From positions 2,912,001 to 2,976,000 of the forward strand of contig CAVOJR010000001.1 of the NCBI GenBank assembly GCA_963696295.1: a stretch of 64,000 bases of DNA. Reading direction: 5' to 3'. How positions within the stretch are numbered: position 1 is the first letter of the stretch; every line of letters begins with the position of its first letter. A model generated the notes under the pieces. It saw nothing but the letters and a program-made list of their open reading frames with translations. It did not search any database and was not told the origin of the DNA. A program made the translations under genes and the position numbers. The stretch is from an uncultured Chlamydiae bacterium. GTDB taxonomy: Bacteria > Chlamydiota > Chlamydiia > Chlamydiales > JAJFMB01. This document shows, piece after piece, positions 40,476 to 41,741 of the stretch.

Positions 40476-41741
40476 TTAAAGAGTCGTCCAGTTTTGGTTT
40501 TTGAGGCTACGGGAGTAATCCTCGGCACCTTTTGCGACGATGCTTCTTGGGTCAGTTTCGCCAAAGGCTTTCAAATTAAGCACTGTGACTTCATAACCAT
40601 CGATGCGTAAACCCTCTTCAATGGCTTTATCCAAACCTTCCACTTGACCTTGGAAACCGGTCAGGGCGACGGTTTTTGGATGAACACCATCATAACCTCT
40701 TAATACTTTGCCGATGGTGCTGACAGCGTCATGGGCAACGGGACGGGAAGAGGCGTCGAGCGATTTACCGACTCTCACTTTACGGGGCTTTCCTTGGATG
40801 TAGAGGTCGATCAGCACAGGCTTAATCGCTTCCGGGGCGTTATAGCCGGAAATAAAGGCGTGCTTTTCCTTAATTTGATTGGCTTCTCTTTCTGAAATAT
40901 CGACATTGGCGTGTTCTTTAAGTTTTTTCATCAACTCAAGAGTAGCCTGGTTACCTGCAAAAGAGAACGATTTCATCCCTTTCGTATTGGAGTCGTCCTG
41001 GTCAAAAATATAGACGTCGCCGGTACCTGCGCCGATATCGCAAACGATGATAGCGCCTTGTGTGCGTTTTAGCACGTTCATCAGGTAGTGGCCTGTAAAC
41101 ACAGCTTCGGAGCGGATCATAAAGCGGTTGTCATTGCTCTTGTTTTTGTTTACCACGACGGAGGCGATGTTTTGCAGAATTTCATCGTATCTTTGCCCGG
41201 CTTCGCAAGGTTTGGCAAAGCAAAGATCCAGAGGTAAACCAGAAGCGAGGAAAGGCTTCAGACAGTATTCAATATTGAGTCTGAGAACGGCGATTTCGAG
41301 TTCGCTGTAGTCGCCGCCTTTTTTCGTTTTGACGGGATAGTGCATTTGGGTTGAGCGTCTCAGGATATCAAAATCATCATTTGAGAGTTGCTTGTTTTGG
41401 AGCAGAGTCTCAATCTGATCAAAGAAAATATAAGGGATTTGGGCTCCGTTTACATATTCTTCCTGCAAGGGCAATTTGTGCGTTTTTTGAAAGTTAAGAA
41501 CATAGTTAATGGAACTTTCATTATTTTTGGCAAACCAGATCAAACTGCTAGTGCATTTGATGGTGATTGGTTTGCTTGTGTATTGAAATTTCTCTTCATC
41601 ATTTGGATCATAACTTTTTCCAAATGCAGTAACTTCGCAGTGAGAAGTACCAATGTCAATCCCCAAACTAATGCGGTCATAGACATCTTTTTTTTCTTCC
41701 TGCTTTGACGAGCTAGTCAATTTCATTAATGAGTTAAACAT
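40476..41741 (-). CDS. Actin-like ATPase, MamK-like
   Basis: LGIDIGTSH, RSEAV, CDIGAGTGD, AGN, IKEK, QGKP, LTG..GL, DP..VAKGA; GGAGG RBS before ATG 41741. Confidence 0.88.
   Translation of the reverse strand: MFNSLMKLTSSSKQEEKKDVYDRISLGIDIGTSHCEVTAFGKSYDPNDEEKFQYTSKPITIKCTSSLIWFAKNNESSINYVLNFQKTHKLPLQEEYVNGAQIPYIFFDQIETLLQNKQLSNDDFDILRRSTQMHYPVKTKKGGDYSELEIAVLRLNIEYCLKPFLASGLPLDLCFAKPCEAGQRYDEILQNIASVVVNKNKSNDNRFMIRSEAVFTGHYLMNVLKRTQGAIIVCDIGAGTGDVYIFDQDDSNTKGMKSFSFAGNQATLELMKKLKEHANVDISEREANQIKEKHAFISGYNAPEAIKPVLIDLYIQGKPRKVRVGKSLDASSRPVAHDAVSTIGKVLRGYDGVHPKTVALTGFQGQVEGLDKAIEEGLRIDGYEVTVLNLKAFGETDPRSIVAKGAEDYSRSLKNQNWTTL

Follow-up and report, generated by a model that had tools for sequence, protein, structure and literature searches.

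In addition to a canonical mreB, the genome of an uncultured chlamydia (G000; 3.43 Mb, 97% complete) contains a gene for an actin-like protein whose nearest described relatives are MamK and BeeR and not MreB, as was confirmed by hidden Markov models (HMMs), profile comparisons and predicted fold. Judged by its model scores, this protein is a member of neither the MamK nor the BeeR family. Together with a phosphoesterase-fold protein encoded directly downstream, it may constitute a two-component accessory cytoskeleton, made up of an actin filament and a dedicated partner.

The gene pair and its surroundings

The window, which is the whole stretch of 64,000 nucleotides that was analysed, holds the following features of the pair:

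41826..41846, minus strand: terminator-like hairpin with T run, closing the upstream repeat-gene array
41747..41751, minus strand: ribosome-binding site GGAGG, 5 nt 5' of ATG 41741, read from sequence
40476..41741, minus strand: actin gene, intact open reading frame (ORF) of 421 aa from ATG 41741
40428..40463, minus strand: perfect 14-bp inverted repeat without a U run, between actin stop and partner start
39314..40414, minus strand: partner gene, 366 aa; its longest frame starts from GTG 40441

The longest frame of the actin ORF begins further out, at GTG 41753; because GGAGG lies 5 nt before ATG 41741, positions 40476-41741 with 421 aa are likely the true gene. Residue numbers given below are counted from GTG 41753, and 4 has to be subtracted for ATG-based numbers. 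An earlier, sequence-only reading had placed a MamK-like actin at these positions. The ORF is intact and lies on the minus strand, and all motifs quoted in that reading (LGIDIGTSH, SEAVFTG, DIGAGTGD, AGN, QGKP and others) are present in the translation. In its codon use the gene does not stand out from the genome, ranking in the 49th percentile among 1,380 long ORFs (GC3 in the 22nd percentile). In soil-metagenome contigs from four runs (two studies in all), pieces of the actin gene were covered with zero differing letters in three runs, and the fourth matches the downstream partner gene; one of the matching runs may be the source sample.

The gap between the upstream terminator-like hairpin and the actin contains a TTGACA hexamer as a putative promoter; since the promoter scan did not list it, this assignment is only a guess. 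The partner starts 61 nt past the stop of the actin, which lies upstream on the same strand, and its 3' end abuts a gene on the opposite strand. This opposing gene and the hairpin upstream of the actin suit a predicted two-gene transcript. For the 81-nt intergenic region a folding energy of -22.7 kcal/mol was obtained (z -5.6), which none of 200 shuffles equalled, and the inverted repeat within it is a candidate mRNA stabiliser that might yield more actin than partner. In agreement with the sequence-only reading, no mreC, rodA or magnetosome (mam) gene was recognisable by eye among the listed ORFs of the window, eight of whose proteins were scanned against Pfam.

Upstream of the actin, positions 41852-44965 (minus strand) hold five tandem paralogues of 130-146 aa, which are rich in Gly and Ala and 59-95% identical. 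Most of them are followed by a terminator-like hairpin, some lie behind a good sigma-70-type promoter match, and three 107-nt repeats occur at about 43005-43328 in the middle of the array. The two paralogues tested had no Pfam or NCBIfam match; no copy was found elsewhere in the genome, in viral contigs, in the two further actin-bearing genomes discussed below (G281 and G405) or in G001 and G002. The paralogues were rejected as part of the actin module, having no homologue in these four genomes. Several long, orphan-looking ORFs on the minus strand at 4075-8058, 16686-24169 and 24320-28093 possibly encode putative host-directed proteins, as judged by eye; one of them (16686-18410, minus strand) has a protein-kinase-like C-terminus and another (21989-24169, minus strand) ends in an OTU-like motif.

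Kinship and fold of the actin

The query remains below threshold in NCBIfam for MamK (NF040964; 59.2 bits, cut-off 400), BeeR (NF053558; 54.2 bits, cut-off 530) and MreB (23.8 bits, cut-off 293), and four of its homologues reach 47-56 bits on the MamK model. In Pfam only a partial match to MreB_Mbl was obtained (33 bits, residues 234-385), and the best sequence matches in the PDB are BeeR (8R2N) and MamK. In profile-profile comparisons the family scored 169 over 330 columns against MamK-like proteins, 143 against BeeR-like proteins and 100 over 172 columns against MreB, and 44 or less against FtsA, EutJ, the volactin domain (29) and Hsp70, the last of which the sequence-only reading had named as a possible alternative affiliation. 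As a yardstick, MamK-like proteins score 567 against BeeR-like proteins and 230 against MreB, and by this measure the low scores of the family place it on a long branch. The Salactin and Volactin models gave no match to the query at E up to 1, and the ESM Atlas returned Salactin-, BeeR- and MamK-type clusters plus others, none of them close.

A separate canonical mreB, for which the sequence-only reading proposed to look, is located at C1:593 kb (TIGR00904, 539 bits). A second MreB_Mbl match in the genome proved to be dnaK. The dnaK at L002 (G000:C1:675565-679026) reads in several frames, more likely owing to assembly errors than as a real pseudogene.

The AlphaFold2 model (mean pLDDT 87.6; N-terminal residues 1-21 disordered with pLDDT under 50) predicts an actin fold, in line with the earlier proposal, and in Foldseek searches of the PDB BeeR and MamK rank first. 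In VIA-align the two are tied, with Z 30.1 (rmsd 3.5, 323 residues aligned) for MamK 5LJW and Z 29.6 (rmsd 4.5, 333 aligned) for BeeR 8R2N, and actins trail both (Z 27.5 or less). With MamK the query shares, besides this fold, GIDxGTSH, DIGAGT, AGN, KE, GKP and a C-terminal tryptophan, and the two are colinear over 330 profile columns. The MamK motifs cited in the sequence-only reading (LGIDLGTSH, YPL..DIEV, SEPF, DIGAGTTD, AGN, GKP) do appear in the alignment to 5JYG/5LJV, and MamK-like as well as BeeR sequences match the query at the C-terminal DP..G(A)..W. In contrast to MamK, to which it is 22% identical, the query has SEAV for SEPF. MamK has MamJ as its partner; in its place the query has the phosphoesterase-fold neighbour, and no mam context is recognisable in the window. 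A magnetochrome search yielded nothing in G000, G281 or G405, and its positive control gave nothing either. BeeR, a three-stranded actin of Verrucomicrobiota, resembles the query in its non-magnetotactic PVC host and perhaps in its disordered N-terminal extension, and 8R2N is the best single-sequence as well as Foldseek match of the query in the PDB. However, structural identity is 19%, the best tree does not include the query in the BeeR clade (100/100), and its disordered N-terminus is shorter than the BeeR extension of 30-50 aa.

Among 25 sequences of the actin family 106 columns are invariant, including D33, G35 and T36 of phosphate-1, the connect-1 glutamate E216, D239, G241, G243 and T244 of phosphate-2, the connect-2 AGN (A266-G267-N268), K295-E296, and G366, G369 and Q370. 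E216 is in register with MamK E143, which we take to be the residue required for hydrolysis. D239 also sets the family apart from Mad28, which has S for D in phosphate-2 (PMC10653835). The altered adenosine motif pointed out by the sequence-only reading is a fixed trait: TG[FY][QM]GQ replaces xGGG in all 25 members, with the first glycine retained and an aromatic residue where MamK, BeeR and MreB mostly carry glycine. This fixation argues that the loop has been selected and has not decayed, and its aromatic residue could weaken or change nucleotide binding. At connect-1, EA stands in place of EP. Phosphate-1 and phosphate-2 are 205-207 residues apart in 25/25 members; the median spacing is 144 for MamK-like proteins as well as for MreB, and 159 for their BeeR-like counterparts. 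An insertion in the N-terminal half had been noted before; its size is confirmed at about 63 extra residues relative to MamK-like proteins, shared by all 25 members, but these are distributed over several inserts (residues 46-62, 81-97, 117-130 and 203-209) rather than forming a single one. AlphaFold2 models the inserts confidently as a hairpin plus helices. Homology would put them in subdomain IB or close to it, a part of the fold through which BeeR and other actins form their strand contacts (PMC11929497).

Phylogenetic analysis placed the family on a branch of its own. Three trees of 62, 48 and 41 rows were subsampled from 101 plus outgroups, with HMM-classified proteins as MamK and BeeR rows and no named saltatorellin, Mad28, Salactin or ParM rows. 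In all three, the family and 13 deeper relatives share a single branch (SH-aLRT 99 and 98 under a site-mixture model; SH-aLRT/bootstrap 99.2/95 under LG), which joins MamK plus BeeR at 89/84 support. MamK-like (96.5/99), BeeR-like (100/100) and MreB proteins (98.9/100) form separate clades, and in no best tree does the query family lie inside any of these, including that of canonical MreB, a grouping that would have spoken against the sequence-only reading. Approximately unbiased (AU) tests, conducted under simpler LG models, which more often reject true clades, rejected the family alone with MamK-like proteins (p 8e-7), BeeR or MreB (p 2e-5; all p under 0.001), which chiefly indicates that its closest kin are the 13 deeper relatives. 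For the wider branch, a union with MamK-like proteins was not rejected (p 0.27), one with BeeR was rejected in a quick run (p 0.034) and not in a better search (p 0.41), and one with MreB (p 0.047 and 0.078) is disfavoured, not firmly rejected. The AU tests thus do not discriminate between MamK, BeeR and the two combined as sister group of the wider branch. The earlier label of a MamK-like protein distinct from MreB holds as a statement of nearest resemblance by NCBIfam, profiles and folds, but not as one of membership: the query scores far under the MamK cut-off, BeeR is about equally close, and the family occupies its own long branch in all three trees.

The deeper relatives were recovered by a search of 1.84 billion representatives plus a second profile search, and comprise P0040 with P0085-P0092 (nine acidic proteins), P0041, P0042, P0043 and P0046. 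They lack the proline after the connect-1 glutamate, and 12 of the 13 have GxxGQ instead of a glycine-rich adenosine loop. The P0040 group is very acidic, and a halophile host would be a guess; P0041, P0043 and P0046 lack the phosphate-2 aspartate (S[IV]G[GA]). No relatives of the P0040 and P0041 groups were found in viral contigs, plasmids or phages. Six other proteins (P0050, P0052, P0056, P0059, P0064 and P0067) are MamK-like actins (380-421 bits) fused to preceding N-terminal regions of 190-880 aa; in the five that were inspected these regions are of low complexity, and three of them share an N-terminal helical segment.

The family itself comprises 24 homologous clusters with 56-76% identity to the query over at least 94% of its length, below which a gap extends down to a BeeR at 27% identity. 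Named records, all of them metagenome-assembled genomes, belong to Parachlamydiaceae, Waddliaceae and Planctomycetota; the occurrence outside Chlamydiota had escaped the sequence-only reading, which saw a chlamydial protein only. Among 400 genomes from the phylum of the window (one further genome was left unscored), profile searches detected the actin in two: G000 and G281, a member of the same order whose actin is the protein that NCBI names Waddliaceae. A single-sequence search found it in none of 40 other relatives. True MamK exceeded the cut-off in 0 of the 400 genomes; there were 371 weak matches to the MamK model, and those used are MreB. In the phylum of G405, one of 401 genomes had a full match, that of G405 itself, and six other matches were weak and partial. 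Contamination of G405 was considered and dismissed, all nine of its loci having 32-36% G+C. Volactin-domain actins (L045-L052) occur in 28 of 61 genomes of this phylum, some in tandem.

This distribution bears on two other readings. Given the host-associated phylum and the disordered N-terminal 21 residues, the protein might be a secreted actin mimic acting in a eukaryotic host of the chlamydia; with a 58%-identical orthologue in G405, a flagellated planctomycete, another on a contig of 64% G+C, and only 13-16% identity to eukaryotic actin in the structural alignment, we regard this as very improbable. A DNA-segregation filament spread on mobile DNA, with a ParM/Alp- or Salactin-like role, would suit the very patchy occurrence, and Salactin is itself a MamK relative (PMC10746226). 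It is nevertheless improbable, if slightly less so than the mimic, because the family had no match in viral contigs, 72,556 plasmids or 50,697 phages, the gene is chromosomal with ordinary codon use, and the partner has no recognised DNA-binding domain.

Linkage and fold of the partner

The sequence-only reading had overlooked that a neighbouring gene travels with the actin: 8 of 10 non-self homologues of the partner are linked to an actin homologue. For seven of them, the two genes come from the same source with an identical longest contig (exact nucleotide match; 9348, 31148, 4318, 2684, 9508, 3909 and 11389 nt), and since a contig of 2,684 nt carries both, they must be adjacent there; the eighth pair has consecutive accessions in a Parachlamydiaceae record (HEV8051169.1/HEV8051170.1). 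The contigs of the remaining two homologues are not long enough to carry the pair. At the genome level the partner was detected once among the 400 genomes from the phylum of the window (G000) and once among 261 from that of G405 (G405 itself), both of them actin holders, and in none of the 659 other genomes searched. The actins of all eight linked pairs rank near the query in sequence (63-76% identity, among the highest in the family), and the adjacency may thus be one inherited event; the correlation between actin and partner identities (r 0.95, 10 pairs) reflects shared descent.

Such a single event would also leave room for a stand-alone, BeeR-like filament, with the phosphoesterase-fold gene a mere neighbour inherited in one subclade. 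In G281 (91% complete, 420 contigs) the actin is present and no partner was found, and in G405 actin and partner are on separate contigs. Apart from the 8 partner-linked actin homologues and 9 on contigs under 2.8 kb, 5 of the 24 are on contigs of 6-49 kb without a partner match, although the G405 partner escaped this search as well. The contexts L005 and L009 otherwise have nothing in common, and G000 matches to the other neighbours of actin and partner in G405 and G281 lie elsewhere in its genome. On the other hand, G405 keeps both genes, though unlinked, in another phylum, and the partner was found in none of the other genomes searched; we therefore consider the stand-alone filament unlikely, and lean slightly towards a physical partnership of the two proteins. 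Beside the G405 actin, L005 carries an ABC-permease-like gene and three SPFH/HflKC-like genes (10351-15246, plus strand; assigned by eye), a cluster that is not near the actin in G000.

The partner begins with a hydrophobic helix, followed by an acidic linker rich in proline and by a calcineurin-like phosphoesterase fold, which matches TT1561 (1UF3) and aq_1956 (2YVT) at Z 18.0; Pfam PF14582 reaches 22 bits (cut-off 28). Calcineurin-like phosphoesterases bind metals through the five motifs DxH, GD, GNH, H and GHxH. In a weak local alignment, YASNVNE and VVLTSL of the partner stand opposite FASDIHG and VILGDV of Escherichia coli YfcE, so that in register with YfcE motif I (SDxH) has become (S/A)NxN-type and motif II (GD) T[NKS]. 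With motifs III-V placed from strand ends in the structural model, 12/12 partner sequences have neither the D nor the H of motif I, nor GD, GNH or GHxH, and the motif-IV histidine is kept in three. Unlike TT1561 and aq_1956, the partner thus retains the fold without the metal ligands, and a catalytically dead protein is the best reading of the model. A hydrophobic N-terminus is found in only 5 of the 12 sequences, and since helix-less forms exist the domain is taken to be cytoplasmic, a putative orientation. A complex prediction for actin residues 22-425 and partner residues 72-362 (score 0.00, mark 0.32) is evidence neither way.

Non-canonical motifs of the partner, among them QNRDY and LPG, are strongly conserved. 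They would suit a pseudo-phosphoesterase that binds a ligand, perhaps sensing a nucleotide or cyclic nucleotide, and that signals together with a non-polymerising actin-fold ATPase switch. The altered adenosine loop, EA for EP at connect-1 and inserts situated where other actins make strand contacts fit such a switch. However, the folds and profiles closest to the actin all belong to proteins that form filaments, the Hsp70, EutJ and FtsA profiles score low, and no kinase or regulator adjoins the actin in the ORF list of the window. We rate the switch a shade below the stand-alone filament, and prefer a filament with a dedicated partner.

Proposed role of the pair

Several MamK-related actins outside or beside magnetosome chains, among saltatorellin, Mad28, Salactin and Volactin, form filaments. 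Filament formation was described for BeeR (PMC11929497), saltatorellin (bioRxiv 10.1101/817700) and Mad28 (PMC10653835), and Salactin polymerises with dynamic instability (PMC10746226). As these close characterised relatives polymerise and the catalytic residues of the query are intact, an ATP-driven filament is likely; the actin would quite probably bind ATP and polymerise into a MamK/BeeR-type filament. ATP hydrolysis by E216 would then allow filament turnover, and the inserts and the TG[FY]QGQ loop could provide strand contacts, and possibly nucleotide handling, of its own.

For a dead enzyme encountered only together with the actin, a role as adaptor of that actin is the best reading. In this capacity, helix-bearing forms of the partner might tether the filament to the inner membrane, a cytoplasm-facing arrangement to which we give slightly less than even odds. 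An analogous case is GAP50 of apicomplexans, a phosphatase-fold protein that anchors the actomyosin motor to the membrane and in which most catalytic residues are not conserved (PMC2172186); it shows by analogy that a phosphoesterase fold can serve as a non-catalytic cytoskeletal anchor. The partner matches the GAP50 structure 3TGH at Z 13.6, a likeness of analogy and not of kinship. The same applies to its likeness to ZipA, which follows a helix-linker-globule plan.

In chlamydiae, MreB and RodZ serve division in an FtsZ-less cell (PMC7029139), and no tubulin/FtsZ match was found in G000 (13 of 14 controls were found). Like the query pair in the proposed model, chlamydial MreB with RodZ combines an actin with a membrane partner in such a cell; the difference is that the genome has its own MreB and the query reaches only 24 bits on the MreB model. 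A flagellar role was rejected, as flagellin is present in G405 and not in G000 or G281 and no common role would result. With division allotted to MreB/RodZ, flagella lacking in both chlamydial carriers and nothing pointing to mobile DNA, positioning or scaffolding remains, and the filament might form a track or scaffold on which membrane-bound cargo is positioned, separately from the MreB-based division machinery. For the model as a whole, in which a filament driven by ATP has its own adaptor or membrane tether, we see an even chance.

MamK-side actins are already known from non-magnetotactic microbes in the form of BeeR, saltatorellin and Salactin. No description of the present branch, of its occurrence in Chlamydiota or of its pseudo-phosphoesterase partner was found in searches of open-access papers and bioRxiv; supplements with wider actin trees, such as those of the BeeR, saltatorellin and Salactin papers, lay outside this scope and could include family members. 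These searches gave no paper that pairs Parachlamydiaceae or Waddlia with MamK, or treats a bacterial actin together with MamK and a metallophosphoesterase, and the sequence-only reading's statement that no MamK-type actin has been characterised in Chlamydiota is upheld within the same scope.

With each MamK-side actin that was newly solved, a further filament architecture or behaviour has come to light, such as the three strands of BeeR and the dynamic instability of Salactin, and it is in the nucleotide loop and the region forming contacts that the query departs most from them. The rare actin and partner module also offers in its partner a handle on function that is missing for BeeR, for which the accessible text of the preprint mentions no partner gene. 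If the proposed role is true, the partner adds a pseudo-enzyme type of actin adaptor in bacteria. Tentatively, we envisage an undescribed actin branch with a rebuilt nucleotide pocket and an enlarged N-terminal half, forming a filament of new architecture anchored by a dead phosphoesterase; on this reading, some chlamydiae and planctomycetes may possess a second, non-MreB cytoskeleton and thereby a bacterial parallel to GAP50-type anchoring.
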